Source: Phoronis australis
Lineage: Eukaryota > Animalia > Phoronida
Direction of reading: 5' to 3'
Assembly (NCBI GenBank): GCA_002633005.1
Contig: NMRA01000108.1
Span: 539,006 to 603,005 of the forward strand
DNA length: 64,000 bases
In this document: in pieces, positions 1 through 60,992 of the stretch
Position numbering within the stretch: the stretch's first letter is position 1
How the letters are laid out: every line of letters begins with the position of its first letter
The notes under the pieces: model-generated
Seen by the model: the letters and a program-made list of their open reading frames with translations, nothing else
The model's database searches: none
What the model was told of the DNA's origin: nothing
Translations under genes and position numbers: made by a program

Positions 1-732
1 AATAGATGTTGCAATGCCGCGTAGTTGCCGACGAATAAAAACATAATGTAGTAAAACTAGTAAAACTAAAATGACGAGCGTCGATACTAAAATATATTAA
101 AATATCCCCACGTATCGAGCAATACTAGTTTCCCTATTATTGAGTTATTTGCTCTCTTCCGCTTTAACTCTTGAGGAGAAAGGTTATTTGTGGTATCGTT
201 ATAAGCTTCACTGGTGGTCAAATTCCTCCATAGACTCTATTCACGCGGCGGACATTAAAATCCAAAGCGAGGCTCACTGCGATAAACAAAGCGAAAGTAG
301 ACATTGCGTGAGTTAAATAGCCGGTCTTTCGAGTCCAACCTGGATATTGAATTTTAATATTGTGTCAACAATTAAACCACACAGACGTAGAAAATTACAT
401 TAGATAACATGTTAAGGCGTCAAAGACTTGTCTGACGAAAGGGTTTAATTTTTTTCGGAAAACTAGGTTCGAAACATGAAAAGTAAATATGACCAAATTG
501 CGGCGATCGTAGTGTTACGGATTAGGTATTATGCTGAATGCAGGGTTACTTTTTTCTTGTAAATTGTTGATCAAAATACTTTCTACGCGGACCAGGTCAT
601 CTGCTCGTATTGTTGACGAGTTGAAGACATATTCGACAGTGGTGGCTGTCATGTGCAATTAGTCACATCTGGTTTAATTTGTTGATCAAGAATATTAAAA
701 TCAAGCATAGCCTGATCCTATGCACTCCCTGG

Positions 733-750
733 NNNNNNNNNNNNNNNNNN
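733..750. other. Assembly gap
   Basis: Run of N. Confidence 1.
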
Positions 751-1019
751 CCCCGCCCTGTTGCAAGCTCTCATAGGCTCTGTCTCATTTTAAAGTAGCC
801 TTTTGTGCTCTTAAAAATTGTCACCTGTGTGGTTACAGGTTATGTGAACTCAGAGAGATTTTTCACTAGGGGAATTTTTATGCCTCGTGGGGGGAATTTC
901 GCGTGATATTTCAATATTTTTGAGAGGGGAATAGGGCCAATATTGGGCCCTAAATTTGAGTGATTGAGGGCTCTGTCCTTCTTGGAAACTGAGAAAAATT
1001 ATAATGTTTCAACCCGTAG

Positions 1020-1313
1020 CAGGGGCGGATCCAGGATTTTGAATTAGGGGGAGGGGGGCAGGCACAGGAATAAGCAACATTTCGGCAGATGCGCGCGCCC
1101 AGCCTAAAATCTGGGGATGCAAGGGTTTTGAATTCTTGGGTTTGTGGACCTGTTGACTAAAAAAAAAACGGTAAACGGGGTTCATTCAGCGCCTATGCGT
1201 TGTTTATTCACCCCCAAGACCCCCTGGTTGCGCACGTGTGCTAGTCAGCAATTCGCACCCGAACTCAAAAATGGGATTTGATACAATTTTAGTGCCCCCC
1301 CCTAAATCCGTAG
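1020..1313. mobile_element. G/C-run MITE (CAGGGGCGGATCC family), right end degenerate
   Basis: Starts CAGGGGCGGATCCAGGATTTTG, the reverse complement of the right end of the 19937-20090 element; ends in poly-C + TAAATCCG. Confidence 0.6.
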
Positions 1314-1705
1314 TTATGAAAATACAACCTGGCTGGCCCATTCTCTGATCGTTACTATGATGCTTGACAACTGACCGAGATGCTACAAAATATGATCTAA
1401 CTTTTCGAAAACATTTATTTTACACGGACATATTTTGCTTCGTCGGCGTATGGCAACGACCCAACGCTTCCGAATCTAAACGTCTTCAGAGATTGTGAAG
1501 CGTGTACGTACTTTTTTCTAGCCGTTCGGGGAACAACACGGACTGAAACACAGACTCCTATGCCGATAAGCTAACAGAGCTATCGTAGCGAGCCTCGTTT
1601 TGGAACGCGCCTCCTGTCGGCGTGAATAGGGTCTATGCTTGTGATTACTCATGGTTTTAAAAACTGTTAGCTTGCAGATCTATACTCTCTTCTCTTTCAT
1701 ATGAG

Positions 1706-1868
1706 GTTCGTGGTGACATTGTTCAAGAAAACGTTACCCAGTGCGTGCTGGAAATGCTGTTGGCGGGAACCGACACATCGTCGGTTACGATGTACTACCT
1801 ATTGGTGTCGTTAGCAGAAAAACCGGAAATTCAAGAGAAGGTTGTGGATGAGATAGCTCGGGTCATAG
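1706..1868 (+). CDS. CYP19: CYP19-like exon (equivalent to CYP19A1 exon 8; I-helix)
   Basis: Pyrimidine tract then GAG acceptor at 1703-1705; 163 nt; phase-1 GT donor at 1869; encodes RGDIVQENVTQCVLEMLLAGTDT...RVIG. Confidence 0.88.
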
Positions 1869-4800
1869 GTAAATGTCGGTCTGACGACTGTCACAAAGGC
1901 TGGGTTATTCCCATTTACTGGATGACCGGCTCACGATAAAGTTTCAATGAATGCCCAACGTTACCTGAGAGTGATAATGAAATATGACACCGCCAAAATT
2001 CCGGGACATATTTTAGTTAAGGTATAATTGCTCATGATCATGGCGTGATGGCATTTCCAGTTTTAAAACGTTTGTTATTGGATATATATTTGAAAACTCA
2101 CGAGTACTCTCGGATAAAATAATGCTGTAAATAAGCTGAACACGTAAGCTATGAATACTTATCTAAACCAATGCTCAAAAAACCGCAGTGTCCGGCGTAA
2201 TGTGACACACTATCATGCACTAACAAGTGCAGGTTTTGAAGTGATAATCGATTAAACTTACCACTTAGCAATGCATATTAGTTTGTGTGGATTTACTCAA
2301 TATGAAAGTGACGTGAAATTCAAGACACAATTCCGGACACTTTTGTGAAAGTTAGTCCAGTAGGCTTATTCTATAAGGAGCAGCCAATGACCACAGGCGC
2401 TTGAGTTTATCTGTTCCTCGGTCGCCACTGACGTCACTCACTACTAAGAATGCATGGTTATGAGTCATCGAGAAATTCGAGCGCCTGTGCCAATGACTAG
2501 GTTTCTGCAACACTTTCGACATTTATGTAACAGATAACTAAATAACCTTTCCATGATTCTCTGCGAGCCTCGGTGTAAAACGTCTGCGACCAGGCACAAA
2601 TGTCTTACGGAAGATGACTGTGGACAGCTAGTGCGTTTTTTTTAGTGACACCTATTTGGTTTCGTATGATACTATTGACCGCCTGCGGTAAAACATTTTG
2701 CACTCCCGATATCAACCGGACAAAGTTGTGCTGTGTAACGAGAATGAACGATTTGTTTAGTGATGAACTTACGGTTTTTTACCAGAAGAGGTTTAATCGA
2801 TCTAACTGTCTATGATCATCTACTATATAAAATGCATCGTTTGCACAAACGCCGTCTACCCCGCTCCACTACGGACCTTCGTTGCGCCCGTTTCGGCACC
2901 GCCTTGGTCCCAGGTATTCCACCAGCCACCTATTTGGATTCGAAGTGTCATATTTTGTCTCGCGGGTCGTTTTTCGCGGATGCGGAGGGAGGGTGGCCAG
3001 TTTTGTACTGGCCTTGATGACGTCAGTTCGTCGGCCTAATGGCTTGGGTGACGTCACTCCCTCCAGCTTCTGTCGCGTATATAATTCATCGGGCCTGTCG
3101 CCGCCAAAAGTAATGATCCCTCATTAAAAAATTATTACACTTCCTTAAGTAAACTAAATTATTTACGCTGGTGTTGGAAAATTGGTGTACTTCAGTTACC
3201 GGTATTTTGCTGCTAAATTTGCGATGCGTTCTTTGGCGCCATTGCGTCACCTATTGGCCAATTTCCATGTTAGTTATTCAAATGAGAAGTTGCGTACATG
3301 TCATAACAATCGCAAGAGGTTTAATTTCATTACAAGTTTTTACTATTGTATTATCAGAGGTTTCATTTCATTACAAGTTTTTACTATTGTATTATCAGAA
3401 AACCCAATTTCAGAAAAAAAAACTCTCGAGAGATATCACATTTTTTTTCGGAAATGGCTCGTACATGTACGTGCGCGTGTAATAAGTATGCACTGTTTTC
3501 AAAACGACCACAGATTTTCCTTTGTTACAAAAGGCGGATAAAAAATACATTTATTAGATTGTATATTTACTTCTATAAACGGCTGTAACGGGCAAGGTGA
3601 ATGTCGGTTCATTCCCAGATTCTGCATGCGCCCATGTAGGTTGTTAACTCTAAATTTCACGACGAGGTGACAAGCTGAGCACCGGGGTTGTGTGAAATTT
3701 CGGTCTTTAACGGAGCTCTACACACAGCTACCTACCTGTATGTTGACGATAGTTTTCATACAGCTAGCTGGCTTTCTACCCGTCAGATTGATGATGCATC
3801 TTTTGTAAATACATAAATATATTTTGTGTACGTATAGATTATGACATGGCGAAGTCGTTATCCGCCGTTATCTAGAGCCCGAGTGGATTGTGGAGAATTA
3901 TCGACCGAGGGGCGTTAGACCGGGGGTGATAATTCTCCAAAATCCACGAGGGCTCTAGAAAAGGGGGATAACGAGTGAGAACATGTAATAATCTAGTTAT
4001 ACCACATACTAAACGAGAAACATTGCAATGAATCGATCTACCTTTCTCGACTCGCCTCGGCTTTGTAACCACTTTCTATGTCCGGGTCGGAGGTCGTAAC
4101 CTTTTAAGGAAAACCGAGCTATTTTTGTCAAATAACGGTTTTACTCAAAACCAATTGGAAATTTAAACAAAATAGAAATGAAGTGAATCTATAAATTAAG
4201 GTTTAGCAACTATAGCTTACTACACATTTTATCACGCCAAGCTTCGACCGGGAAAATATCGTCTGCTAAAGTAGGTTACCACTAGTAACTGACTATAATG
4301 CTCAAGTCAAAGGAACCCGACGACACGATACCCGCATTCAAATTGGAGATCGGTGATTTACAAGTGAGAGAATACGAGATAAAAATTTCATAAAATATCG
4401 TTTTTATGGAAATTATGCGTCATATTTTTCATAGCGCATAAATGTCGGTGCAATGCCCTTTGCTGAACATGCGATTGTTGCGCGTGCTGATTTAAGTATT
4501 CTATTTTCACGTTCGATGACGTCAGCCGCTGAGTGGTGTAGTGGTAAAGTCGGCGACTCGAAACTCTTGACGCCCGGGTTTGAATCCGGCCTCGGTTTCC
4601 CGCATAAATGTTATCTCACAAGTGAGATAACTTTATGGGTTATTACACGGTTGTATCTGCCATTCGAGGCTAATATTGTGGTATAGTATACAGTATTTGA
4701 AATGCATTCTTAGTTTTCACTTTAAAGAATATCTGATTACTATACTTTGTGTTACAGCAGTGTCAAATGTTCTGGGAAGAAATTTGTACTGCCTGGGGAA

Positions 4801-6181
4801 AGAATCCCGCAGCCACACACCTTGCCTACTAAAACCTGACAGTGACTGAAATTCTGCTTGAAGGTTTGAACATGGCCTTTCAAGAAGTATTCCCGTTTCT
4901 TGCAATAAACATTAATGTTCACTCCTAGGAGTATCTACATGTACTTCTCTCGGCATTTCCCTCTAACTGTTACCGGCTAGTTCAATACGGCTAAAATAAA
5001 TCACGTGTCTTAGTAGTTAATTTGTGTTTAGATGTTAAGTTTTTAACTCATGACACTTATGCTTTGCATCGTTTTAGGCGACAGAGACGTAACAAAAGCT
5101 GACACGGTTAAGTTATTGTACATGGAGCAAGCTTTAAAAGAATCCATGCGCATCAAACCCGTAGGTCTAGTCGTGCTAAGGAGAGCTCTCCGAGATGACG
5201 TCATTGAGGGCCACGTGATCCCGGCTAACACAAACATCATCTTGAATCTTGCCCAAATGCATAGGCGAGAAGAACACTTTCCCAATGCCGACGTCTTTGA
5301 TCCCGACCATTTTGCGGACAAGGTGAGATATTTATATATTTCAAAAGGCTTGGTATATATTTTTCCCGGTTGGTTACTGGGACCTTACACGGCAGGGCTT
5401 CACTTGCTCCTCCTAGGGGCACCCCATTAATTCATTAGAAATTTGAGCTCTTCCACTGTATCTTACATTTTCTCAGTACATAAGTACCGGAATCGTTAGC
5501 GTCAACGACTCACAATATCACCAACCCAGATCTAAGTTAACTTTTGTGACGCAGAGCAATCATTGCATTATTGATGACTTTACGGACAGTCATAATACTG
5601 CAGGGAACGCTTAACAATGGACAAGATTGGTACTGTCTAAAATCCTCTCTCGTCTGAAAAACTCACGAAACGGGACCTCTTAGTAATGTGTTGCAGTCGG
5701 TCAAGTGTCGGCCAAAACCTCACTGCACAAGCTCGGCGTGTTAGGGAGAAGTCAGTTTACACCCTGCCTGCCCACCCTAGGCGGAGATTAAAAACGGTCT
5801 GCGTTTAACTTTAACACAAAGTCTTAGCAGATTTCAAAACAGATTTAAGTTATACCTGAACTGTTTTCTCCGCGCATACCTTTGGATTGGTCCGGCTTTT
5901 AGTGACTGCCCAGCTTCTATTTCCAGCAATTCCAAGAGGAATTTCTCCCGTTTGGAACTGGGCCCAAAGGGTGCATCGGACAATTTCTAGCCATGATAGA
6001 AATGAAAGCAATTTTGTGTACTTTGCTCCGAGAGTACAAGGTGAAATCATGTGGTCAGACTATCGCGTCAATGGCAACCAGGTGGGACATCGCTCAGCAA
6101 CCAACCGAGCCAAGCTATTTGTTCCTCGTTCCTCGACGACATTTGGTGGAAATTGGATGCAGTACAAAGCTGTCGAATTAA
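1706..6181 (+). CDS. CYP19: CYP19-family (aromatase-like) cytochrome P450, 3' part (three exons; 5' exons lie upstream of the window)
   Basis: Spliced translation of 1706-1868 + 5078-5322 + 5927-6181: VRGDIVQENVTQCVLEMLLAGTDTSSVTMYYLLVSLAEKPEIQEKVVDEIARVIG/DRDVTKADTVKLLYMEQALKESMRIKPVGLVVLRRALRDDVIEGHVIPANTNIILNLAQMHRREEHFPNADVFDPDHFADK/QFQEEFLPFGTGPKGCIGQFLAMIEMKAILCTLLREYKVKSCGQTIASMATRWDIAQQPTEPSYLFLVPRRHLVEIGCSTKLSN*. P450 I-helix, ExxR (ESMR) and heme motif (FGTGPKGCIG) are present. CYP19-specific strings RGD..ENV.QC.LEML, ESMR..PV, RAL.DDVI.G, TNIILN...MHR and MKAIL.TLLR are present. Introns fall at the CYP19A1 positions. Confidence 0.9.
2392..2489. mobile_element. 98-bp MITE with 8-bp TSD (hAT-like)
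   Basis: TIRs CACAGGCGCTTGAGTTT / AAATTCGAGCGCCTGTG; exact flanking duplication CCAATGAC at 2384-2391 and 2490-2497. Confidence 0.85.
3316..3399. repeat. 41-bp tandem duplication
   Basis: GAGGTTT(A/C)ATTTCATTACAAGTTTTTACTATTGTATTATCA occurs twice. Confidence 0.9.
3835..3995. repeat. Long imperfect hairpin (foldback element)
   Basis: Arms TAGATTATGACATG..CGTTATCC..TCTAGAGCCC..GTGGATT..TGGAGAATTATC and GATAATTCTCCA..AATCCAC..GGGCTCTAGA..GGATAACG..CATGTAATAATCTA. Confidence 0.85.
4528..4640 (+). mobile_element. tRNA-derived (SINE-head-like) sequence followed by a palindrome
   Basis: A-box TGGTGTAGTGG, B-box GGTTTGAATCC, acceptor-like pairing GCTGAG/CTCGGT, broken anticodon stem; then hairpin CATAAATGTTATCTCAC-AA-GTGAGATAACTTTATG. 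Confidence 0.55.
5078..5322 (+). CDS. CYP19: CYP19-like exon (equivalent to exon 9; K-helix ExxR)
   Basis: ttttag acceptor ending 5077; GTGAGA donor at 5323; 245 nt; phases 1 to 0 match the neighbouring exons. Confidence 0.92.
5927..6181 (+). CDS. CYP19: CYP19-like terminal exon (equivalent to exon 10; heme-binding Cys)
   Basis: ttccag acceptor ending 5926; FLPFGTGPKGCIG heme motif; TAA at 6179-6181. Confidence 0.92.
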   Translation, partial: QFQEEFLPFGTGPKGCIGQFLAMIEMKAILCTLLREYKVKSCGQTIASMATRWDIAQQPTEPSYLFLVPRRHLVEIGCSTKLSN

Positions 6182-6392
6182 AAGGAGTGGGAGACATCTT
6201 TTGCAACAACTACTTTACTTGGCAATGTCCATGTATTTGTAGAGATAAATACGAGTGGCCGATGACGTGATTTGTCGGTGAGGTTAGAATGTTGAATTAT
6301 GGGACAAAATTCATTGTTTTGCGTTCCATAGGCGAAGGGTACACGCCGCTAGATTCGTGGGTCTACGGAACCCATCCCTGATTACATGAACT

Positions 6393-6398: not shown

Positions 6399-6596
6399 AG
6401 TATTATACAAGTATCAGTCTCTTGATGGACAATGGTTTTAGTCATTTTTTGATGTGATCTAGATAGGGCAGAAGATTGGTCATGTAGGAAGCAATGGAAA
6501 AAAAACGATCCTCAATAGACAGGATGGCCGGATATTTCAGCTTCCTAAAATTTAATTCAGTCATCAAGTTTCTTGTTTCATAAAAACAAAGTCCTG

Positions 6597-44915: not shown

Positions 44916-45203
44916 ATGTTTCTGTACTATTTAGCTTAAAGGGTGTGTTATACCCTGTATCCCACTATTGGTAGACAGAGGGACGGGGGAGACTTGAAGG
45001 ACATTGTGAAACGTAAAAAGGGGCTAGTGCCTGAACTTTAGTGGACTGAGTGCATTCGAGGCTAGCCCTAGTTCAGAGAGGCCACTGTTCACGTGGCTCT
45101 CATGTGATCAATAAAATGTGTTTTTCAATTGTCGAGAGTCGAACATTTATGGAAGCTGAGATTGAATATTTTGGTTGAAAGAAAGATGTAAGAAAATCGC
45201 ACT

Positions 45204-45372: not shown

Positions 45373-48300
45373 GTAATCGTGTGTTATCATGATCACTAGT
45401 CGATAAGGACACCCTAAAACCTGGTGCTCACATTCCAGAACAATATTCAAAACAATACCTTACGGCCAGGAATTTTAACTACAAAAACCTGCCTGATATT
45501 CCTGATCAGTTTTCGTAAAGCTGCATTTCACATAACCACCTAACCCTGCTAACTGTAGGTGTGTAAGACTTCATGAACATCGAAACACAGCTAGTGAACG
45601 CTGTGGGTAAAAATTTGACACTTTAAGCGAAGCTTGATGACTTATTGCAAGGAGACTTAATCAACATGTAGCATGTCAAACCACTGAGGCACCTTTAATC
45701 AGCCGCTCGTCATGACACTACACTATAGAATGTGTACGAGAGGGATCCAATATGGCCCGTGAGTACTTGCACAAGCGAGTTATTTACCCGTTTGATTAAA
45801 ATTGATGGAACTGTTAAAATACACTTCAAATCTGTTACTTTATGTTCGTTTAGTGAAGACACTCGCAGACAATAAAGACAAATGGAACGATCTGATGTAG
45901 GCAATGTGCCTCAAATTCCACAGCTCGCCGTACTCAGCGATCAAAAGATGCCATGACAGACTAAATAGTTGTGGGTTGAGTGTTTGCTATTAGTGAAGCT
46001 GCAATTGTCTTGGATGAAAGGTTAAAGGTCAATTGAATTCTCATTCCAGTTCAGTCACTCCCTCATAACGTGGACACTTATTCAGTATTTGCAAATAATG
46101 AGTTGGACATGTCGGAAATTGAAGTGTTCGGCTTCGACTACGATTACACGCTCGCCAACTACACCGACAACTTACATTATCTTCTGTATGACTTGGGACG
46201 TGATTATTTAGTCAGCAAATTCAAGGTAAGTCTGTACCTTTTGTTGGTTGTAAGCGCTATGCTTCTGAAACGTAGTCTTTTATTATCACAGTTTGGGTCT
46301 GAAATCCACCATGACCTTGGTGAAAGTCATGTAATATTGAGCTCGTATCATCAAATGAAAAATGGAAACTAGTTTTAATTAATTTTGTAAATTTGTATTT
46401 TTCTTTTCAAGGTTGTCAGAGCTTGTTATGTACCAGCGGTCGTTCTGTGTTTTTGTACGATGAGCCTTTATTGCAGAAAAAAGTTGTTTGAAAATACCCT
46501 ACCCAAGACAACTGAACATGGTTGCCAGACTCCCTCGGTCAGTCGCTGCTATTTTGTTTTGGTATTCTGTTCTATTTATGTGACTTAGTACAGTGGAAGC
46601 CAAAAGTATTCAAGACCAAATGATCTGGAATTTCCCATTATGGTCTTTGGGCAAAAGAGGCATTCATTTGTGAGTGAAGCTGTCTCTCATGACTGAGAAT
46701 GAAAGGGAATTAAAAGGACATGTAGGAAGGTGGATAAACCATTCTGCTGAAGCGTGCTGCTTAATAGTCATTTTTGTTGTGTTAACACAATTAGCCATCA
46801 TGACGTGGAAATGGTATTTTGTCTGATTACTTTTGTAAGAGACTGTACGATTTGCTGGTTATCTTAGAACCCATTTTAATACTAATACTTTTTGCAGTAT
46901 CCAGAAGAAATTGTCGATCTACCTTTTGATCCCAAGTTTTCTGCCAGAGGACTACACTTTGACGTGCAAGAGGTAAGACTGAGAGGACAAATCACCTTTT
47001 TGTTTTATAGGTGACTTGTTTACTTGTAGCTCAGGGGTTTTGAAAGTTAAATGGTTCTTTCGATAAAATTATGCCTCTACTGGAGATGTTTCTTGGTGAG
47101 AAAGTTGCACCAAACAAACAATAATTAATGTAAAGAAAACAAGAAACATGGTTTCTTACCTTTGTCAGAGTTGGAACATTCGTGGGTCTGAGGTAGTAGT
47201 CAGCAGATGGATAATAATAACCTTTATGGGATTCTATAATTTGGATTACGTGATAGCTTTATTGTCTATTGGATGTCATTGACCTTCCAGTTTGTGTATT
47301 GAGTATCTTCGAGAAATGGAAAAAAACAGCAAACCTGTTTGCTTTCACAGTGTACAAACAGTAGCAGGTCTGGAGAACATTATCAGGAAAGACAACTATT
47401 TTGGTGTATGTATAATTTGTACATGCTTTGAATGTGATTTTAAAATGAAACTGCTGTCAGTAATCTAACCATTGTAATAATGTAAATTTGAAGTCTTACA
47501 ATATCACACCAATTCAGTCCCTGCAGGTTGCATATTAGTGGTGCTGGGAGTTTTCAAAACGATATGTTTCACCCTTACAAATGAGAGTTCTGTCAGGGCA
47601 AAAACCCAGGCATAAGCTTTGTGAACTGTGACCTCATCAATTAACTGATGTTCTCTGATTGGTCGTTTCTTCACCATGCTCATTCTGAGCTTATTGACTC
47701 TTTAGTCAATGTGTGACAGAAAAATGAATGTTTTATCAATACACATCGTCTTTTGAATAGGTTTCAGGTAAACCACAAATATTACGCCTATACCGTACCC
47801 TAATGATATTATCTTTGGGTCAAACAAGCTGATGCAGATTTCAGAAACTTTGCTGGGATAATTTTGTGATATTTGACATAGATAACAGCTCCATCTATAC
47901 ATCAACAGCGTAATTGGGGCTTAATCCTTTATAACTTGTAAATCATTGGACAAAGAAACTTTTCATATTCCGTGTACAGAGGTCTACGTTTCTAATGGCA
48001 TAAATTATTGTTAAGTTCAATAGTACTTCTGCAATTACTTTTGGAAAAATGCTAATAAGAATCATTGTTTTGCTGCTTGACCTTGATGGTAATATCTTCC
48101 TGCAACAGATAATTTTGCAGAATATCTAATGATGGCTTTTGAAATAATGTTACGATCGAAATGGATAACAATTAGGTTTTCTTTCCCAGCCTTCTACACT
48201 AGCAGTATGCATGAATTTTCAATTTCGAGCATGGTCTGCGAACATCAGCGTCCAGTGTCTGTTGCATGAAAAGTGACACTTAAGACAGGGCGCTTCACAC

Positions 48301-51300
48301 AACTATTACTGGAAAATAATTAAAGTTCACATGACCAAAAGTGCAAAGTCTCTAAAAATATACGCATAACTGCTAGTTACCGACTGAGGTAATTTCTACA
48401 AATTATTTCTAGACTGTGATGCACTCATAATCATTTTGTCTAATTTAAAATCTTTTTTAAGCAATTATAAAGTGTGAGCATAAGACTACCGGTAATTTTC
48501 TGTCTTAAGTCACTTTCATGAAACGGGCTGCAGGCCTGCATCTTGTGCAGGAGATTGTGGACCTTCTTATGTGCTGACTCGAATCACTCATGGACTCACT
48601 ACTAACTACCAACACCGTGGAACAATATACAGGACACACCTAAAGTATTCAGACAAAAAGACTGGGAATTCCCGTCATGGCGGCTGGGCGGAAGCGGAAT
48701 TCATAGTCTGAGTAGCTTTCCGTAATGACGTAGAGTGAAGGGTACTTAACAGGAAAAATTGACCAGGAGTAAGCCATTCTGCTATTGTAAGTTTGCTGCC
48801 ATAAATGCCATTACCAGGCATTTTTGCTGTTCATAGAATTTGACGTCATGACGAGGAAATTGTATTTTGTCTGCCAGTAGTTTCTCTGCGTAGGATAATG
48901 TGTACCACCATAAGTATAGATAAATAAGTTAGTTTCGGGACTCAATTTTTATTGGTTCATTTCTGGGAAATGGTAATGAATTCTAGAGCAAAATGTGAAC
49001 TCGTGTGTTTTTCAGGGTAATCTTTTGAAGATTGATGCTTTTCACACCATCCAGATGGGTACAGTGTTCAAAGGACTTCATCCTGTCTCTGATAAAGATG
49101 TCCTGGAGACATATAATGGCATACATGTACCACTTGACATTATGAGTGGTTTCCATGGCAAAGTGAGTCTTGCTAAAGCGTAATTGTTGATGTCTCCAAA
49201 ATCAAGATGAATAATTAATCAATAGTCAAATTATTAATTATACATTTTTTCAAGAAATATTGCCAGTGACATCATATACAGACATGTGAATGAATGCATG
49301 ATTATTTGACACATACACATACGCACAAACATAAACGCACATAGACGCGCACACAAACACTCATTTCAAGACCAGACATCAAATTTTAACACTAGATAAT
49401 ATTCAAAGAAACGAAAGAGTCAAAGAGGACCATATTTTACTGAATTTTTCATATTCACAGTTTGAAAGTAATGCAACATCTTTCTAAAAAGTTTAAATGA
49501 ATAAGAAGACAACTGCGATCTCAATAATTTAACGTAAAGCATCTAGCGCAACCTGTCATTATGCGCAAGAACAACGTCAAGAAATGCATACGATGTCATC
49601 AAATAATGGGTATGACATCATCAAACTTTGGGTGTGACATCATCAAACAATGGGGGTGACATCATCAACATTATACCCAGGGTGTGTGCATGGGGTGGTT
49701 GATGAATCCAGTATACTGACTGAGTGTGTTTGTGTGGGGGGGAGGGTTTGAATCCAGTAGTGAGTCTTTTTATTTGCTTTTCTCAGGGTCCACGTATGTA
49801 TCAGCTGATGGATCTCTTTGCCTTGCCTGAAATCACACTGCTGGCAAACGTCACAGAGGTATAGTGTATAACTAATATTAGCATTACCTTGGTGTTTTTT
49901 TCATGATTGAGATGATATATGGTAAGAATTCCTAAATTTTGGTGCTGAAAAATTCACAAAGAAATTTTTCCTAGAAATTATGAGCAAATGAGAAATTTTC
50001 CCATTAAGGTTAATTTGATTTGTTTGTGAAATTTCGGAAATGATTCTGTAAGAAAATGGCTTCTTCTGTAAAAACTGTGCGGGAATTGTTTGTACCCTAA
50101 ATCTTATCACTGACATCGGTTATAGAATTTTTACCATGATAAACAATTTGAAGGCATTCATCAGTAAAGTGCATCTCCCATGACTAAAACTATCTTGTCA
50201 GTGAAATCAGCATAATATGGTCTAATAACCAGAGGTGACCAAATGCACTCAGCGATCAGACAAAAGAATGCTGTGTCACCTGATGATGGACAAAACAATA
50301 AAATGAAGTTGTAATTTAGTGAATTTTGATGGTACTTTTTATTAATTATGTTTTATTGATCTCTGATTACAGTTCTTTGAGAGAAACAGTATCCCATACC
50401 ACCCTGAGAATCTTTTTCGTGACGTCACCACAGCTATTCAGTCTATTCATAAGAATGGTGAACTGCACCAAGCAATTATGAATGACTTGGGTAAGGTTAA
50501 GTAGTATTCTATCCCTTCATTCAAAATTCCACCTTCGCTGACCAATCATTTCAGTGGCCGCCTATTTGCTACGAAAAATGTGCGCTTGTAAGGTACCGAG
50601 TGTACTCGCCAAGAATTCACCTTTCACTCATGTAATTTTGCCTGATCTTGCATGATCAGTATTTCCTCTGTGGGTAAAAATCTGAGCAGCCAGCTACAGT
50701 CCTTTTTGACCCCGCTACTTGTAATCTTGCCCAAATTGACTGCCACACTCCCTAGTCTGACAAGAAAACTTTCACCGCCGAGCAAAAATCTTTAGTAAAA
50801 TTGAATATGCAACAGACAAGTTACTCAGCTACTGTCAATGTTTGTGGATCGAAGGGAAAAACATTTTAAAATCAGATTTTGAACTTTTCCCCTTGTTAAA
50901 AGTAATCATTTTATTCCTTTTTCCTAGCGTTCGCTCAGTGACAAACGATGCACAGTTATTGAATGTAGTCAGGGACCAGGCAATGACCTTGACATTAGTT
51001 TTCTAAAATGGCCAAGCACCAGTGAACACAGATGAAATGGGTGTTTACGATTACAATTAAAGAAGTCGTGCAAAAATGTGATTTTTATTGCAGAGAATAG
51101 TCAACAGTGAATCATAGACCTATCAAGTTATCTTAGTAGTTGTCTGCACTGAATGGATAAATAAATCTTCTGCTAATTAATCCAATTGATTTACATTAAG
51201 CAAGAATATAAACGATCTCATACCAGTTAGTCAATCAGCTCTAAACAGGTTTGATCATGTTTATTGTTTGATGTACTAGTACATGCATAGAGCTGGAGAA

Positions 51301-54300
51301 TTCACTTTTAATGAATGGTCTGAAGCTTGCTGGCATGTCTGCTTCCTATTGCAACTTTAATTGGTGATTAAAATATACTTGAATGATACAAAACTCTTCA
51401 TACTCTGAGATCACTCAATGACACTTCACTGCGGCGTCGGTCTCGGCATCCACTGAGACCATTCACTACCACGCTCTTTTCGAAAATCTAGAGAACACTG
51501 GTGATCTTAGTGTTTTGTGAGTATTTTGCATCTCCCCAACGCACCCCTTAATACTATGTTCAATTTCCACACCTGATAACTTTGTGGGCATTCATTTAGG
51601 GTGTTCTTTCTCCAAACAGCGATGAAGAACTATTTGAATTAACCCGGAGTCGTGTTTCAAATCTTGAGCCGTGTCTGAAAAGCTTCGGCCTTTTCTGGTT
51701 CATGGTGGAAATGTCTTGATTGAAATGGCATTGGATATTGGCAAGTGCCAATTGCTTTTGTGTGGATTGGCAAAAAGAACACGATGCTTAATTTGCATTA
51801 GTAACTCCTCAATAGATTTGTACCAGATGGCGCTGTGACAAGAAGCCGGTTAATCAGGAATGCTGATTTGGGGCCCTTGTGTGAGGAGCAGTGCAATTTT
51901 GTGAGGAGCAATGCAATTACTGCATTGGTCATGATTTCACAGCAATAAAGCACACTGTATAATTTAAAAATAAACTGATTTACCATTATGTGAAACTGTT
52001 GATTGTTCGAACTATTTGGTATCTAAAATTAAACTCCTTGTGAAAAGCTTGGTTAAGGGACTCATTTTTTGCCCGTACAAATGTGATACAGATTAGCCAA
52101 TAATTGCGTTAGGTTTCACTTCTTTGATTCCCAGTGATGAGAATAGCCGAATTTGATTCTAGTTATTTTTTTTAATCACGATGGTAGATAATTGGCCTAC
52201 ACATCGTGATGGCAGACAAAAAACGTAGGATCGCTCAAGAGTTGACTTAGATTTAGTCTCGATTTGTGAACTGTTGTCGTCTGGAGTTGAAACCAAATAG
52301 GAGGTTTTTGTAATTGAGCCATGCTTGTAGTTTTGCCTTTTGAGAACACCAATAATGTGCACAGAAAGTTCTTTGTGAAGCGTTGATTTATAACTGACTG
52401 CCATAACAAACTGTTTCAACACTTTTTGATGTATAGATGATGTACGATATGTGTTTGATAATTGCATGATTCAATCTTAAATTGTTAGCATTATGCACAA
52501 TGATTTTTGCTGATTGGCCCATCAGCTGATTGCTATCCCACAATTCCTCCATCTTTTTGATTGACAGTTCATGCTGCGTGAAAGATGTGCCAAATTGGCT
52601 ATTGATTTTTTAAAGAAATGTCAATAGGCTGTCACCATCATGGAATTCTTGATATAAAGGTTTTGAGTAGGTGGCGATATTTTTGCCATGGTTCCATGCA
52701 GCGCACCACTCCATTTGTCATTGATCACTTACTTCATCCAGATGTGTCGTACGGCAGCTTTACAAGAAATGTGAAATTCCATAAATCGTAACAAGTCTGG
52801 ATTACGTATGAGATTCATTGCGAGAAACATCAATGGTGAAATCTCACCTATTTAGGACACAATATGGCTGACAATTGTATTTTTTCTCATGTTTTTGTGT
52901 GAAAGATATGCGGCACCAAATTAATGCCTTCCTGTGTACCGTTCAAAGTCTGTACCAGGCAATGTTTTGAAAAATACTGTGCGTTCACAACAAAGTAATT
53001 ATGAAGACGTTGGAAAATGGGAACGGCATTTTTAGCAATATTTTTTGTCTGAAATTGATGGCCTTTTACCATATTGGATGTTGAGCAATGAAACATTGAT
53101 TTTGGCTCAGTACCAACAGTGGGTATTAAATCTTTTTTTCCATTAAATGTATAATTAATAATGGAACTGTCTATCACACACACACACACACAGCTGGCCT
53201 CAGTCTGTTATAATAGGTATCAGGCTGTGGTGGTACTATACTAGAGCAATAATACAATTTGCTGCCAATTTGACTCCTGTGGATATCTCGTGAGAAAAGC
53301 ACAGCACGCATTACCAACACAGTTGTTGTTGGTTAGCTTCATAGGCTGTCTATATTAATATTCTTTCCATGTTAGCATTTTTAATAAAGGTTCTAGATGT
53401 TTCCGTTTAGCATTACCTCAATTCTATGTTCCTTTGTATTTATTATGTATTTATGAGTATACGTAGTGGCATACGGTGTATGTATTATGTATGTTACCTT
53501 ATGTATTACTGTATATATTATGTATGTCACCTTATGTATTACTGTATATATTATGTACGTCAACTTATTTATTACTCTATATATTATGTATGTCACCTTA
53601 TGTATTACTGTATATATTATGTACGTCACCTTATGTATTACTGTATATTCCTTAGTTATTACTTGAGTCTGCTCCATGTTGGCTTTGTACTCATCTTAAT
53701 TTTACGTTACTCTCATTTTGTCCCCTTGTTGTGTCTTGTATATATTTTTATATTGTCATGTTAACCAGCTGTTCCACTCCATGTTAGCATTTTTCGTATA
53801 GTCATAGCTACTGTTACTCTATTTCACTCAATGCCTCACTCACTCTCCCTTGAATGGGCGGATGCATCCTTCTGCTGCACATGTGGCAGATTGTCACCCA
53901 CCTTTGTATCTCAACATATTGTTAATATAACTTTTGTAGTTATCGATATCTGTAGTAGTTTAGTTTGTCATAATATGTATGACCTTTTATGTCATCCAAA
54001 TGAGTTGTTTCACTGTAAACTAGCTCTGGTATCGCTTAGCAGTTAGTGCATGTAAGGTCTGATACTTTGTTTCATAAGATTAACACTGTTTTTAGTTTTG
54101 GTTTGGGACTTATTATGACTTATCACTTAATTTGGTTTAGTGTCTAAGTGTGGCTTAGTGACTAAGTGTGGCTTAGTGACTAAGTGTGGCTTAGTGACTT
54201 AAGTGTGGCTTAGTGACTAAGTGTGACTTGTTTACTTAGCAGCCATAATGTTCTCCTTTCTAGAGACCTATCTTTGCAAAGAAGATGGCCAGATGATTGG

Positions 54301-57300
54301 GAAATTATTGAAAAAACTCTCAGATGCTGGAAAGAAGCTCTTCCTTATTACAAACAGTGGCTATCCTTTTGTGTAAGTGATTGATGTAGTCTAACTCGGC
54401 GTGATTAACACGATTATTGCAGCATTGCGGACTATACATTGCTTTCACACCTCTTCTAGTTTGGTTACCTTTTACATGATTTACCGTAGATCAGATCCAG
54501 AATTTGGCAAAATCATTCTCAGCCATTTTGACACTCATCAGTAAGTGTTTCTGGAATTTAGAGAATGCGAAATTTACTTATTTGATAAATGCGTTTAGAA
54601 TACGTCACCCTTGGTATTTTCCAAAGGTAATATAAAGCGTCTCATAATGGTTGTCTGTAGTGGCCAATTAAATGTTTGTGACTTGCTTAGAACAGAAAAA
54701 ATTTGTTTGAAGGAATAAGGGAATGAGCTTCATGGTTGGTGAGGATTGGAAAGATCTATTTGATGTCATCGTAGTCTCCGCAATGAAACCCCAGTTCTTC
54801 ACTGAATCTTCCAGNCAGCCATAATGTTCTCCTTTCTAGAGACCTATCTTTGCAAAGAAGATGGCCAGATGATTGGGAAATTATTGAAAAAACTCTCAGA
54901 TGCTGGAAAGAAGCTCTTCCTTATTACAAACAGTGGCTATCCTTTTGTGTAAGTGATTGATGTAGTCTAACTCGGCGTGATTAACACGATTATTGCAGCA
55001 TTGCGGACTATACATTGCTTTCACACCTCTTCTAGTTTGGTTACCTTTTACATGATTTACCGTAGATCAGATCCAGAATTTGGCAAAATCATTCTCAGCC
55101 ATTTTGACACTCATCAGTAAGTGTTTCCGGAATTTAGAGAATGCGAAATTTACTTATTTGATAAATGCGTTTAGAATACGACACCCTTGGTATTTCCCAA
55201 AGGTAATATAAAGCAACTCATAATGGTTGTCTGTAGTGGCCAATTAAATGCTTGTGACTTGCTTAGAACAGAAAAAGTTTGTTTGAAGGAATAAGGGAAT
55301 GAGCTTCATGGTTGGTGAGGATTGGAAAGATCTATTTGATGTCATCGTAGTCTCCGCAATGAAACCCCAGTTCTTCACTGAATCTTCCAGGTAGGTTGCA
55401 TGCTAAGTCAAGACTTCAGCCCTCGAGCTCAAAACTTTTCCTGAGGCTATACTGAAAATTGACCAATCACGTCACGTGAAATATAAAATGGTTCAAATGT
55501 GTTTCTCAATTGCTAACTGTGATTTGGTTCTGAGTAGTTGGGATTTGAGTAGCACTAACCAGATACGTTTTTAGTTTTATAACCATCATCTTTTTTGGGG
55601 GGTAGGGGGTGACTTGGGAACAGAGATGACTCATTACGTCATTATGGCATTCTCCTGTTGGGTCTAACTTGCTCGGTTGTGTAGCATAACAAGTTGGGTG
55701 GATGACTGCTGTACCCAATATCTTGCATGACTGATAAGTCCATTCTGGCAGTCATGGTTGGACGGTCAGCTCTCTTATGTTCAATAATTGATCTAATCTT
55801 CGATAAGATCCTATCTAGCCTGACTGGGCTGTGCCGTGAAAAATAAAATTTCTGTTTTAAAATGTTTGAACATAAGTCAATAACATTATTTTCTGGATTC
55901 CTCGTCAAATGCTGATTTTGTTAAGTTTTTGAATCACCAAAACCGCCTAACTACAACCAATCTATTCTTACCGAACGTACCAACGCACTGGGTTTGACTG
56001 TGTTCCCACATGGTCTGTAATAAGTCTTGTACTGGCCTTCCTGTTGCCACAGGAGACAAAAGACTTTGCTGGGCAGTTAACAAAGGAGCTAGATGTTATC
56101 ACTTCCTGACATCCACTCTGTGTCTGGTAAAGTCACTGAACTGGAGAATGCCCTAATGTGGTAACACTAACATTGTCTGCATTCTTTACATATTAATAGA
56201 CTGGTTTGCATTGTGCACATGTGATAGCACAATTAGAATAGTTATCCTAACTAAATACCTCTAGAGAATTTGGAGTTATTTGAATAGAGGTTCGTCTTAC
56301 ATTTTGAACCATGTCATGTGATATGTTGATATATTTAAAAGTTTTAGTAAAAAGTGATGAACTTAGGTCCTGGTGCTCAGATTCAATGCACCTAAAGTTG
56401 TCTAAAATTGGCTACTTGAACTTCTGAACTGTGTATCTGATGCAACAGTCACTGTTGTGGCTTTTTGGATTTGAGGCCCTAGAGAAAATAATTTTTAGTG
56501 ATGTTCTTAATTTGTCTATTCCCTTATTTTTTGGACTCCATTCTTGCAACTACTGATAACGATGTTGAGGGACAGCCTACTTTTTGAAGCGTTGAATGTT
56601 TTGGGCTGTGCCTCGTCATGAAGTCTTCACAAGATAAAAGAGCGGTAAAACGTATAATATTGTTGTTGATCTTTCAGGTGCATTTTGTTCTGTCACACCC
56701 AGAGGTCATATTAAAGTTTTATTTCAGACCATTCAGAATGTATAGTGAAGAGATTGATTCTTTATCGTATGACCGCGTGCGGACTTTAAAGAAAGACAGT
56801 GTTTATAGAGAGGTACGTCTTCCAACGGTTGTTAGCTGGTTTTCCTGCCATCTGAAAATCTACTTTTTGATGTAGTTTAAAAAATACATAGCGCTCTTAT
56901 TAAGAGACATTGGCCAATACTACTACATGCATGTAAATCTTTGCAGCGATCGTAGGAGACTCGGTACTTGCTAGGTGGTCTTGGTAAAAGACGAAGCTTC
57001 TTTTTATTTTATCTGATTAAAGTATGATTAGAAAACTGTTCACCAGCATAGGGTTTTTGGGATAAGTGTCCCACATGTACCTCAGCATGTGCATTTATTC
57101 AGGTAGGCAGTAGTTTTAACAGTGCCACCTAGTGGACTTTGAGCTTCTTATCAGGTTGTCAAAAGTTCCACTTTGGAGTGGAGAATACATTTAGATTTAG
57201 CTATGGAACCCATCTTTTATCATAAGTGTAATAGACTGGTTATACCATAGTTTGAAGCAAGGATCCAATAAACAATTGGGTCCTAGTTTGAAGTAACTCA

Positions 57301-60300
57301 AAATGTGCTCCAAAAGTTTTTAAAATGTCATGTAGTGTTAGACTTTCACTGGGTAAACATGTTGAGTATTTTAAGCAAATCTCTTCATTAGTGGATTGCG
57401 TATGACATCTCTTGTTTCCTGGATGTGATATATTAGTATGCTATTGTTACAGGGAAATATCAACGAGTTCCAAAGACTGACTTCATGGTATGGGAACAAA
57501 GTTCTATATTTTGGAGACCACGTCTACAGTGATCTAGCTGTAAGTTTGTATCAATTGTCAAGAGCATAAAGGACCAAAAGTGGGCTGGTAAATTGTAGCT
57601 ATGACTATCATGTCATTGTGTTGTATAGGCACACTGTTCATCAAAGATCTTAACGAAGATGGTCATTACATGAGGATACAGACAAATAGTTAAATTAGTG
57701 TTTGTTGCAGTGTTTTGTTCATATAAATATGCTACATCAGGACGGTATAGTGGGTGTTTGGAAGCCAGGAACTGTAAAAACAGTGCATTATTTTACTATT
57801 TATGAATTAAGTAGAAACAACACATATATCTCTCCATCCCTTTCAATGTTAGACAATATCTTAAGATGTTGGGAAGTTTTCATTGGGTGGAAGCACCTTG
57901 CTGGCGGTAAACAAAATGTTTTCCTGAAACTTGAATGTCAGAAAAATGGGTAAATTTACAATTTTTACTGGACCTGAGTTTGCCAAATAGGATGGTTGAA
58001 TTTCAAAACTAAATTCCCAATTTTTCATGTTATAGATTGAAATGAATCATATTCTTTGATTCAGATACAAAAAATACCCGAAGCCACATGTCTGCTTTTC
58101 TAACAATAGTCATGGAAAATTGAATGGAGGTGATGAAAATGTTTCAATTATTTTATGTGTTTTTATTTTACATTTATCGTTCTCACCAAATTGGTTTCGT
58201 AATTTTAATTATATCCACTACATTTAAGAGTGTATTAACTTGAATTAGATGAAAAAAATTTCGATTGACTGTTTGTCTTTGTTGACAGATGCCACCCCCT
58301 GTTGGCCAGCTGTCTCAAGAACTTGCCAAAAGTTTACCTGTCAATAATTTATACAGTATCCGCGACATAAACTGGGTTACTGTTGTGTTTTCATGTTTCA
58401 TACAGTTTAATTTTGTTAAGTGCTATGTTCTTTTGATAACAGGTTTTATTTCTCTGTGTTCAATTGTGAACTTTTATTAGACATATTGGCCTGTCTAATC
58501 AGAAACTAACTCAGCTGCTTTAAACTACGTAGTATTCACAATTAAGGCATCCTGTTGCCCAACTTATGACTAATTAGCATAAAATTAATATTCCGGCCAT
58601 TCGTGTGCGATAGTCATGAACAATCAGAGCCCAACCCCAAGTTCGCCATTGAAATGCAGGCTTTTGACAGTTACAACTAAGGCAAATATTTTGTCTGAGG
58701 AGCATTCATAAGTGAATTTATTTTAGATCTTAGACCAGGCGTCTAATCTTTCATCCAATCATATGGTATGTGAAAGCTAATGTTGATTTGCATTTCGTAC
58801 TGAATTACAATAAGATTGGTACAAAAACGATCAATGTTTTAATGTAGCTTTAGCCATAATATGTAAACCCATTTGCTACAGTCTGTTTGAGTCATTTCCT
58901 GTAAGTACCTTTTAGTATGCCACTAGAGACCCCCTATTTGTGTTTATAGGATGCAACTCTTCGCCATGGCTGGAGGACTGGGGCAATAATACCTGAATTG
59001 GAGGTAAGGTTTCCAAAAATTCGAAAATAGCTTATAATGATGAAATTTTCTTTTTCCATTTTCCAAAAGCTCAGGTTACCTTGTGATGGCTGTCGATGGC
59101 AGAGCATTGCCAACTGTGGTAATAATGAAGTAAATAATTTTCTGTTTATTTTTGTCTGAGAAACATGGCAGCTGAAGTAAAATATCACTGTTCCACCATA
59201 TCTAGTTAGCTTTTATGTAACTATGTGATAAACTTTGAAAAATTAAAATTGTGTCAAAATCATATGTTCAGTCATCTAAAAGAAATGAATTTTAGATATT
59301 CTCCTGACGTTGTGGTCAATTCAGCAGCTCAAAATTCCAAGTCCTGTTCAATCTTAAATTTCCTGAAAATATCCTCCACAGACAGAAATATCATCTACTG
59401 ATTCCCAATCTACAAAAATATGGAGCCAGCTTATATTTTTATATAAAAATAATTTTCTACGCAATCATTTAAAAATGTGCCCACTTACTTTAAGTTGAGC
59501 CGAAATTTCTGGTGTCAACAAGTTCTGAGTATTAACTAACTTTTTTGACGATTATTTACTAATTATTACTTGGTGTTTTTAATGATTAAGTTAATAAGCC
59601 ATTCTAACTTTGGCTGCGTCTTTATCTGTCATCTCCGAGCAAAAGTCAATATCATATAACTTCCTTATGTCATCTTTTTGTTGATGTTTCTCTCGTCTCA
59701 TTTTAGGACGAGTTTCAATTGTGTTATCTCTTTGTTGTCATGTCTTGCATCTCATTATAGGATGATATCTTAGAGAAGTTCCTAATGTCTTTTCTTTGTT
59801 GTATGAATCTTGGATGTCATTTTAACATGAACTACTGAAATTCCTATGTCAAGTCTTTGCTATTGACAGTGTCTTATATCTCGTTTTGAGCAAGTTACCA
59901 ATCAGGTGATATTTATTGTACTACTTTGGGATGGAATCCTAGAGATGTTCTTAGAATTCTATGTCATCTTTTCATTGACATATTTTGCATCTCATTTTAG
60001 GATGAGATCCAAGTTCTCAACAGTGACCAGTACAAGTCAAGCGTAATGTGGTTGGTCATGCTTCAGGATCTGATCGAAAAATCTCAAGTTTACAACGATG
60101 AAGAATCTCGAGAGGTCATCAGCCAGTGGTTGGCAGAGAGGAACGAGTTAAGGCAAGTTCTGTTAAAGTCGCATACACAGCGCATCCTTGCAAACTGTTT
60201 TTTAATGTCTGGAATATAGTTAAAGTTTTATTTAACATACTACTAAGATAGTTTTTTAACTTTTCACAATTTAAATGTGAATTGAATGGAGTTCACTGAA

Positions 60301-60992
60301 TCCAGTCTAAGTTTGTCTACAATCATTATGTAGGTTGAAGTTCAGCACTGCACCTTCTCTTGTTTATGAACACAATCTACTAAGATTTTGTCGAAGCTTT
60401 TATTCAGTCACCAGAAGACAAAAGTTGTTTCTGGTTAAAAACGTTCATCGTTGTCTCCTGTGATGATAGTAAAAACGTTACTTATACTAGGAGACATTTA
60501 GATAGTTGAGCATAACGTTTTTGCGGGGCATGACGGAGCTGCAAGCTTGAAATGATATGCTCAACTAACTATATGTCTCCTAGTAAGTAACTTCTCTCGT
60601 TTTTACCATGTTCTATCCTAAAATTTCTATTACCAAAGCCTTTGTCAAAATGTTCTCATTTTTGTTTACAGAGCTGTAATGTTTTATAAATTAGTGCACA
60701 ATCTATTTAGTTAAAACAGTCAAGTAAATAAAAATGTATAAAGCCAATTTTTTAATAAAATTTTATCTCCTGTAGGCAAATAACCAAGAAAGTTTTCAAC
60801 AAGCAGTTTGGCAGTGTATTCAGGACGTACCACAACCCGTCTTACTTCACCCGTCGTCTCTGTCGCTTTGCCGACATCTACACCTCGTCCATAGTCAACT
60901 TGCTCAACTACCAACTAACTCACACGTTCTACCCTAGGAGGGCAGCACTGCCTCATGAGATGAATTATTCAGTTGTTTTGCCAACATCCTAG
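45204..60992 (+). CDS. NT5DC3: 5'-nucleotidase domain-containing protein (NT5DC2/NT5DC3 family, HAD superfamily), 13 exons, ~520 aa
   Basis: Exons 45204-45372, 46050-46225, 46898-46972, 49016-49162, 49787-49858, 50373-50490, 54264-54372, 55289-55390, 56728-56812, 57453-57539, 58950-59003, 60001-60152 and 60776-60992 join in frame (1563 nt). HAD motifs [17 protein letters not shown] and [10 protein letters not shown]; family strings [43 protein letters not shown] and HTFYPRR. Likely a single invertebrate pro-ortholog of NT5DC2/3. Confidence 0.95.
46050..46225 (+). CDS. NT5DC3: NT5DC exon 2
   Basis: [23 protein letters not shown]; ccag acceptor, GTAAGT donor. Confidence 0.92.
46591..46845. mobile_element. 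Tc1/mariner-type MITE with TA TSD, copy 1
   Basis: TA-CAGT.....CAAAAGTATTCAAGAC ... GTCTGATTACTTTTG.....ACTG-TA; collinear with 48630-48902. Confidence 0.75.
46898..46972 (+). CDS. NT5DC3: NT5DC exon 3
   Basis: [25 protein letters not shown]; tgcag / GTAAGA. Confidence 0.92.
48253..48530. mobile_element. MITE
   Basis: Inverted ends GTTGCATGAAAAGTGACACTTAAGACAG / CTGTCTTAAGTCACTTTCATGAAACGGGCTG. Confidence 0.7.
48630..48902. mobile_element. Tc1/mariner-type MITE, copy 2 (more decayed)
   Basis: Shares AAAGTATTCA.AC, GGAATT.CC, CCATTCTGCT and TCATGACG.GGAAAT.GTATTTTGTCTG with 46591-46845. Confidence 0.65.
49016..49162 (+). CDS. NT5DC3: NT5DC exon 4
   Basis: [20 protein letters not shown]...FHGK; ttcag / GTGAGT. 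Confidence 0.92.
49592..49670. repeat. ~23-bp minisatellite, ~3.5 units
   Basis: TGACATCATCAAAC(A/T)(A/T)TGGG.G repeated. Confidence 0.85.
49787..49858 (+). CDS. NT5DC3: NT5DC exon 5
   Basis: [24 protein letters not shown]; ctcag / GTATAG. Confidence 0.92.
50373..50490 (+). CDS. NT5DC3: NT5DC exon 6
   Basis: [39 protein letters not shown]; tacag / GTAAGG. Confidence 0.92.
53482..53648. repeat. 33-bp AT-rich minisatellite, ~5 units
   Basis: TATTATGTA(T/C)GT(C/T)ACCTTATGTATTACTGTATA repeated; explains the periodic ORFs. Confidence 0.95.
54127..54230. repeat. 18-bp minisatellite, ~5 units
   Basis: TAAGTGTGGCTTAGTGAC repeated. Confidence 0.95.
54264..54372 (+). CDS. NT5DC3: NT5DC exon 7 (first copy)
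   Basis: [37 protein letters not shown]; tctag / GTAAGT. Confidence 0.85.
54713..54814 (+). CDS. NT5DC3: NT5DC exon 8 (first copy; donor replaced by N at 54815)
   Basis: [33 protein letters not shown]. Confidence 0.6.
54840..54948 (+). CDS. NT5DC3: NT5DC exon 7 (second copy)
   Basis: Reads identical to 54264-54372. Confidence 0.6.
55289..55390 (+). CDS. NT5DC3: NT5DC exon 8 (second copy, intact donor)
   Basis: Reads identical to 54713-54814; tgaag acceptor, GTAGGT donor. Confidence 0.85.
56728..56812 (+). CDS. NT5DC3: NT5DC exon 9
   Basis: [29 protein letters not shown]; ttcag / GTACGT. Confidence 0.9.
57453..57539 (+). CDS. NT5DC3: NT5DC exon 10
   Basis: [29 protein letters not shown]; tacag / GTAAGT. 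Confidence 0.93.
58950..59003 (+). CDS. NT5DC3: NT5DC exon 11
   Basis: [18 protein letters not shown]; tatag / GTAAGG. Confidence 0.93.
59665..60015. repeat. Degenerate ~55-60-bp tandem array built on the exon 12 splice acceptor
   Basis: Units TATGTCATCTTT..TTG...TCTCATTTTAG|GA(C/T)GA; AG at 59705-59706 and 59759-59760, and the true acceptor at 59999-60000. Confidence 0.75.
60001..60152 (+). CDS. NT5DC3: NT5DC exon 12 (GC donor)
   Basis: [51 protein letters not shown]; tttag acceptor, AG|GCAAGT donor. Confidence 0.88.
60468..60606. repeat. Hairpin / foldback in the last NT5DC intron
   Basis: GTTACTT..ACTAGGAGACAT.TAG.TAGTTGAGCATA versus TATGCTCAACTA.CTA.ATGTCTCCTAGTAAGTAAC; outer GTAAAAACG / CGTTTTTAC. 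Confidence 0.85.
60776..60992 (+). CDS. NT5DC3: NT5DC exon 13 (terminal)
   Basis: [61 protein letters not shown]...PTS*; TAG at 60990-60992. Confidence 0.93.

Follow-up and report, generated by a model that had tools for sequence, protein, structure and literature searches.

A transcribed like1-type gene of the CYP19 clan, with a putative sterol or steroid oxidase product, in a non-vertebrate genome

Introduction

Amphioxus carries two genes of the aromatase (CYP19) type, of which Cyp19-like2 is reported to cluster with the vertebrate enzymes and Cyp19-like1 with hydroid and sea-lily proteins (PMC11047327), so that a CYP19-like branch older than the chordates is already in print. The same source places the highest expression of Cyp19-like1 in the gill. 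Elsewhere, CYP19 or clan 19 is stated to be confined to chordates (PMC4229089, PMC5375646, PMC8110760), a view that underlies the debate over estrogens in invertebrates, and CYP19 is treated as chordate-only or as absent from annelid, mollusc and four cnidarian genomes in the accounts of PMC4229089, PMC8110760, PMC12965858 and PMC5375646. Here we describe a gene of the CYP19 clan that enters a 64,000-nucleotide stretch of animal DNA (contig NMRA01000108.1, positions 539,006 to 603,005; hereafter the window) with its last three coding exons. We consider these exons to be the transcribed and spliced 3' part of a like1-branch gene whose product likely oxidizes an endogenous sterol or steroid and does not aromatize androgens, a reading to which we give a probability of about 0.6.

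The residues that distinguish aromatase from its relatives are well described. [quoted passage not shown] PMC7159065 records the substitution V370M for a patient with aromatase deficiency.

Gene structure and transcription

The three exons in the window (Table 1) have AG/GT ends and, when joined, form one open frame of 220 codons and a stop. Each of them individually exceeds the cut-off of the Pfam p450 family (PF00067), and the translation, which we call the window protein, has the hallmarks of a cytochrome P450 (P450), namely the acid-alcohol pair of the I helix, ExxR and the heme-Cys motif. When each exon was scored separately against 177,635 sequences of the PDB, human CYP19A1 was the top match of all three (E = 8.5e-12, 2.1e-14 and 3.5e-11), and the next P450 (1.6e-5, 9.6e-10 and 3.1e-6) fell behind in E-value by three to six orders of magnitude. 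The first exon aligns without gaps to human residues 288-340, with 25 of 53 positions identical, and the count becomes 26 of 55 when the split Gly is included. Thus the three-exon structure with a CYP19A1-like translation that a sequence-only reading of the window had proposed, and its by-eye figure of 26 gap-free identities in 55, are both borne out.

Table 1. Features of the window discussed in the text.
Feature	Position	Strand	Details
Intron 7, part	1..1705	+	Earlier exons lie upstream of the window; an upstream exon is carried by RNA reads
CYP19A1 exon 8 equivalent	1706..1868	+	163 nt; I helix, AGTDT; donor GT, phase 1
Thr codon aligned with human Pro308	1769-1771	+	Within the exon 1706..1868
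CYP19A1 exon 9 equivalent	5078..5322	+	245 nt; K helix ExxR, SRS-5 (substrate recognition site 5), meander
Last coding exon	5927..6181	+	255 nt; heme-ligand Cys motif, like1-type SRS-6 'WDIAQQP', stop
3' untranslated region, start	6182..6337	+	X5 contig record extends to 6337
NT5DC3 gene	46051..60992	+	12 exons traced, one open frame; 5' exon candidate near 45315-45372

Four RNA runs bear the same organism label as the DNA, one assembled into contigs (X5) and three as raw reads (X6-X8). Their coverage of the P450 exons is thin and on the sense strand: in all 19 raw reads on the first exon the first mate maps to the minus strand, which is sense under the usual stranded protocol, and X8 contributes no read to this exon. 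Five X6 reads and an X5 contig cross the splice 5322>5927, and 1868>5078 is represented by the loose ends of three X7 reads and by the X5 contig, while position 1706 is joined to an upstream exon outside the window in three reads of X6, eight of X7 and the X5 contig. At the first exon the acceptor (1703-1705) is GAG, an uncommon form, at which splicing is read-supported with three letters ambiguous. Because the frame is open and the RNA is spliced, a pseudogene is unlikely.

Within the 64-kb window no CYP19-clan exon was found beyond these three, the upstream exon of the RNA reads included, and an Rfam scan gave no matches. Dispersed repeats are abundant in the introns and flanks of the gene (760-1660, 2335-2560, 3685-4810, 3865-3965 and 6594-7216), where many RNA reads from other copies map; two pairs of inverted repeats of the miniature inverted-repeat transposable element type are among them.

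Place within the CYP19 clan

For phylogeny we used 43 proteins hand-picked from the retrieved P450s, with short pieces and most near-duplicates left out. Tree 1 was restricted to the 212 columns for which the host, that is, the organism that carries the window, has sequence, and compared 36 clan rows with 8 outgroup rows; tree 2 used the full-length alignment of 38 rows, 31 clan against 7 outgroup, after six had been dropped, including one long branch and near-duplicates. The outgroups were CYP3/CYP4-like and bacterial P450s labeled by motif, and clans 2, 20 and 46 were compared by PDB score. The window protein lies inside the CYP19 clan in both trees (support 100/100 in tree 1 and 100/99 in tree 2). 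The vertebrate aromatases and amphioxus like2 form a starred clade (100/98 in tree 1), and the window protein is outside it in both trees. In tree 2 the aromatases nest, with weak support (81/24), in an animal group together with the window protein, crinoid and sponge proteins and amphioxus like1, and here the window protein pairs with P0130 (88/85).

Over about 210 residues the window protein is 58.5-59.4% identical to amphioxus like1, 56-58% to the crinoid proteins, 52% to that of the sponge and 37-41% to true aromatases; the range is 52-63% for all like1-type rows of the animal group, and 39-45% for clan proteins of bdelloid rotifers, fungi and diatoms. Set against the 40% rule for membership of the CYP19 family (PMC4229089), the C-terminal part that we can compare is 37-41% identical to named CYP19 proteins, and the 55% rule for a subfamily is reached over the same part by the like1 and crinoid proteins, at 56-59%. 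We defined as diagnostic those columns in which one residue is present in at least 80% of the 30 other clan rows and in none of the five true aromatases. In the 14 columns so defined, the window protein has the like1 residue 13 times, the aromatase residue never and a third residue (Leu for Pro) once.

To judge from these comparisons, the window gene is a like1-type member of the CYP19 clan and probably not an ortholog of aromatase. The membership of the CYP19 family claimed in the sequence-only reading therefore stands at the level of the clan (100/100) and probably not as aromatase orthology, since the protein is outside the starred clade and has both Pro308 and Val370 replaced. With vertebrate CYP19A1 and amphioxus like2 (PDB 3EQM for the fold) it has in common the clan, the fold, the intron positions, D309/T310, E483 and the heme Cys; it differs from the true aromatases, a separate starred clade, at Pro308, Val370, Leu372, Met374, Leu477 and His480. 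The closest described counterpart, amphioxus Cyp19-like1 (XP_035672840, XP_019626033; PMC11047327), shares the motifs AGTDT, KPVG and WDIAQQP. The window protein differs from it in having Leu at the D371 position, where Pro is otherwise invariant, Leu in place of Met374, and Glu at 483. Proteins of the crinoids Anneissia (XP_033105836) and Antedon (XP_071943715) and of the sponge Corticium (XP_062511026) have the same diagnostic residues at 52-58% identity, and a protein of the hydroid Hydractinia (XP_057290659) is known here from Table S1 of PMC11047327 alone. What is new is thus this gene as a further member of a known, little-studied branch.

Introns shared with CYP19A1 and beyond

The sequence-only reading had stressed that the introns fall where those of CYP19A1 do. 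Intron 7 of the window gene lies at what we take to be the position of human intron 7. Introns 8 and 9 coincide with the ends of single-exon read-through open reading frames (ORFs) whose top-scoring reference is the aromatase of pig or eel (P0166, P0169, P0171, P0195, P0204 and P0209). Human intron 9 is given as following c.1263 (c.1263+1; codon 421, phase 0) in PMC7159065, and intron 9 of the window, also phase 0, maps to this position through the PDB alignments. For introns 8 and 9, then, the earlier observation holds.

This coincidence is not specific to aromatase, however, because the same boundaries recur in like1-type genes. A sponge ORF (P0132) corresponds exactly to residues 321-402 of the Corticium protein and ends at both exon-9 boundaries, a comparison made at the protein level, so that introns 8 and 9 are apparently common to the sponge and window genes. 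In addition, the 28 metagenome loci include six (L012-L017) that hold the I-helix exon alone, in the form of five distinct exons, with AG/GT at the same 163-nt boundaries in all six. We conclude from these alignments that the animal members of the clan inherited these introns from their common ancestor and that the positions, being common to like1-type genes, are not diagnostic of aromatase. Loci L012-L017 and L021-L028 are animal-type, intron-bearing like1 loci on metagenome contigs.

The active-site pocket

At the position of Pro308, which is Pro in all five aromatases of the alignment, the window protein has Thr. In SRS-5 it replaces V370, D371, L372 and M374 with Gly, Leu, Val and Leu, respectively, and in SRS-6 L477 and His480 with Ile and Gln. 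The equivalents of the catalytic residues D309, T310, C437 and E483 are all retained. The full-length relatives keep I133, F221 and W224, mostly with Trp at F134, as well as M303, A306, D309 and T310; the exons that encode the contacts in the N-terminal half (I133, F134, F221, W224 and R192) lie outside the window, and the numbering of these columns is provisional. From diatoms to animals, the motifs of the pocket hardly vary. A model of amphioxus like1, which here stands in for the window protein, has a mean confidence (predicted local distance difference test, pLDDT) of 90.6 and fits aromatase 3EQM best, with template modeling (TM) scores of 0.87/0.96 and a root-mean-square deviation of 1.6.

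Distribution of the branch

A search with the second exon covered 1.84 billion representative proteins, and was headed by protein pieces at 55-77% identity and the crinoid Anneissia 'aromatase-like' protein at 61%, with the true aromatase of amphioxus behind at 44%. With this exon alone, a word-based search gave 43 candidates, none at E 1e-8; profile searches did find relatives, and in one of them 60 of the 7,995 scored candidates reached E 1e-40. The named matches come from crinoids, amphioxus (like1), the sponge Corticium, bdelloid rotifers, a chytrid, Glomeromycota and diatoms, and include lungfish and eel aromatase; the RefSeq label of the crinoid and sponge relatives is 'aromatase-like'. 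Clan members also occur in an alveolate. Bdelloid rotifers are the only named protostomes among the matches, and molluscs, annelids, sea urchins and insects do not appear among the named matches of the 60, which in a word-limited search is weak evidence of absence. CYP19-like genes are said to occur in springtails and a fungus gnat as well, a report that our literature search did not retrieve. In the ESM Atlas only aromatase-like and other P450 clusters were found.

With representatives in rotifers, fungi, diatoms and an alveolate, the CYP19 clan is older than Bilateria. Prokaryote genomes yielded no clan member, their 15 loci all being P450s at 21-33% identity, and viral contigs yielded a single P450 locus at 22%; no bacterial or viral source was thus found.

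In several clan P450s (P0288, P0299, P0312, P0319 and P0322), belonging to a chytrid, Glomeromycota and other eukaryotes, the chain continues C-terminally into an AAA_28 P-loop domain, a fusion that may hint at an ancestral pathway; by eye, P0325 and P0329 have a similar C-terminal P-loop. The animal members found are unfused, and the window gene, which has the pocket motifs of the bdelloid, fungal and diatom proteins, likewise lacks the fusion. Bdelloid proteins group apart from the other animal members in the full-length tree. An intronless clan gene on an AT-rich eukaryotic contig (L002:3572-5281) is bdelloid-like by eye, unlike the window gene in its lack of introns, and horizontal gain or retroposition is possible.

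Discussion

We suggest, from sequence comparison, that the gene most likely encodes a microsomal sterol or steroid oxidase. By analogy with its full-length relatives, the enzyme would have an N-terminal membrane anchor and an activation of O2 driven by P450 reductase. Its cavity would be hydrophobic and steroid-shaped, because the relatives keep I133, F221, W224, M303, A306, D309 and T310, and a single endogenous substrate is to be expected, since the motifs are constant from diatoms to animals. Thr at position 308 would abolish the repositioning of the I helix by which androstenedione comes to have its 3-keto group seated at Asp309, and Gly at V370, Trp at F134 (in the relatives) and WDIA in place of the L477-S478 loop would reshape the site; with these key residues of the aromatase pocket replaced, modification of a sterol would be likelier than conversion of androgen to estrogen. 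The gene is very probably vertically inherited. It would descend from an intron-bearing gene of the animal ancestor, with many losses since, and a duplicate of that ancestral gene would have become true aromatase on the chordate line, which would explain why amphioxus has both genes and why the introns match.

A number of points weigh against this interpretation. Its weakest step is the sterol substrate, which we infer from kinship, and the literature searched holds no measurement of a like1-type activity. The retention of Asp309, Thr310 and Glu483 counts against it, as does the expression of like1 in amphioxus gonad primordia (PMC11047327), and the AAA_28 fusion of fungal and some other members is unexplained by a role in sterol metabolism. 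The host is represented in no more than 44% of the alignment columns, all of them C-terminal, and the window protein falls in no starred subgroup. In approximately unbiased (AU) tests, a clade of the window protein with the true aromatases was not rejected (p 0.19), nor was one with amphioxus like1 (p 0.44), and therefore the trees alone do not settle orthology. Finally, the Leu codon at 5167-5169 (D371 position) stands where all 30 other like1-type rows have Pro, and could stem from an allele, an assembly error or a change that affects function.

The retained D309, T310 and E483 would also suit an enzyme that removes C19 and aromatizes the A ring of sterols that still bear their side chain, giving products of the paraestrol type, with this activity ancestral to androgen aromatase. 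PMC5375646 infers an early aromatization of side-chain sterols, perhaps by a paralogous CYP in non-chordates, and cites aromatized long-chain steroids in sponges and cnidarians; the like1 branch is the closest paralog found and occurs in a sponge and a hydroid. We nevertheless regard this as possible but unlikely, given that Pro308 is not present, that fungal and diatom members have near-identical motifs, that molluscs, in which aromatization is reported, are not among the named matches of the 60 proteins, and that CYP19 is described as absent from four cnidarian genomes (PMC8110760). Far more doubtful is the view, implied by the sequence-only reading, that a non-chordate here possesses a functional androgen aromatase. 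[quoted passage not shown]

The likeness to aromatase might instead reflect descent only, with the enzyme acting on some small molecule other than a sterol, in a pathway for which a P-loop kinase-like activity is required as well. The P450-AAA_28 fusions of chytrid, Glomeromycota and other eukaryotes, the patchy distribution of the branch among eukaryotes and the gill peak reported for amphioxus would fit such a role; but several steroid-contact residues of aromatase are retained across the branch, the animal members found are unfused and no such substrate can be named, so that we hold it to be improbable. Least credible to us is that the host is a cephalochordate and the gene simply its cyp19-like1. 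Such a reading has in its favor the grouping with amphioxus like1 that the AU test allowed (p 0.44), and the comparison of the neighboring NT5DC3 gene was made without a cephalochordate sequence. Against it, the window protein is 59% identical to Branchiostoma like1, where a crinoid protein reaches 63% and two Branchiostoma species are 95% alike; neither tree joins it to amphioxus, and NT5DC3 is nearest to that of a brachiopod (59%) and a chiton (57%).

The 'aromatase-like' matches of invertebrates are members of a sister branch that is old and has a fixed pocket of its own, and should therefore not be taken as evidence of estrogen synthesis; the conclusion drawn in the literature on androgen aromatase in invertebrates is not overturned by the window gene. 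Nor does the gene move the origin of the family deeper into Bilateria, as had been proposed from the sequence, given that the clustering of like1 with crinoid and hydroid proteins is already published (PMC11047327), that RefSeq carries 'aromatase-like' labels, and that fungi and diatoms have members. The like1 branch does offer a defined family of enzymes, with a handful of residues, for studying how aromatase arose and where the aromatic sterols of non-chordates come from, and is a candidate for the non-chordate sterol-aromatizing enzyme proposed in PMC5375646. Should the reading as a sterol aromatase be true, the branch, retained together with the introns of aromatase from sponges to the host, would be the long-sought aromatizing P450 of non-chordates, and chordate aromatase would derive from it by few changes in the pocket (T308P, G370V, W134F and the 476-480 loop). 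If the host is confirmed as a lophotrochozoan, the gene would be an intron-conserved protostome member. Neither the residue contrast of the two branches nor the intron sharing with a sponge was found in a paper within our search, which left subscription papers and bioRxiv supplements outside its range.

Genomic context and the neighboring NT5DC3 gene

The ratio of observed to expected CpG is 0.97-1.07 over positions 1-45000 and 0.51 over 45001-64000, the part that holds the NT5DC3 gene body. Methylation of gene bodies in invertebrates gives such mosaic CpG depletion, and the pattern suggests mosaic methylation with the P450 gene unmethylated. With a ratio of about 1.0 over the first 45 kb and depletion confined to a gene body, the context is not that of a vertebrate, as the sequence-only reading had noted. 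The CpG pattern, together with a like1 identity of 59% where Branchiostoma species share 95%, also sets the host apart from vertebrates and from the amphioxus Branchiostoma. Vertebrate contamination was ruled out by the CpG ratio, the identity and the expression in runs that bear the same organism label. The gene has introns and is very probably vertically inherited, which upholds the earlier view.

The NT5DC3 protein is nearest to that of the brachiopod Lingula (59% identity) and of a chiton (57%); lower values were obtained with a hemichordate and a spider (55-56%), echinoderms (53%) and insects (52-54%). The best match of a single exon stood at 83%. In trees of 17 and 11 rows, drawn from groups other than chordates, cnidarians, annelids and phoronids, AU tests rejected a crinoid (p 0.01) and an echinoderm (p 0.03) placement of the host, were borderline for Ambulacraria (p 0.058) and did not reject a lophotrochozoan one (p 0.39-0.44). 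The host is thereby set apart from the crinoid carriers of 'aromatase-like' genes. We consider it probably a lophotrochozoan and very unlikely to be a cephalochordate. The last intron of NT5DC3 starts with GC (60153). Two of its exons are held in two head-to-tail blocks of 575 nt (54240-55390), identical at 568 of 575 positions and with a single N at 54815; this duplication is probably an assembly overlap of two haplotypes.

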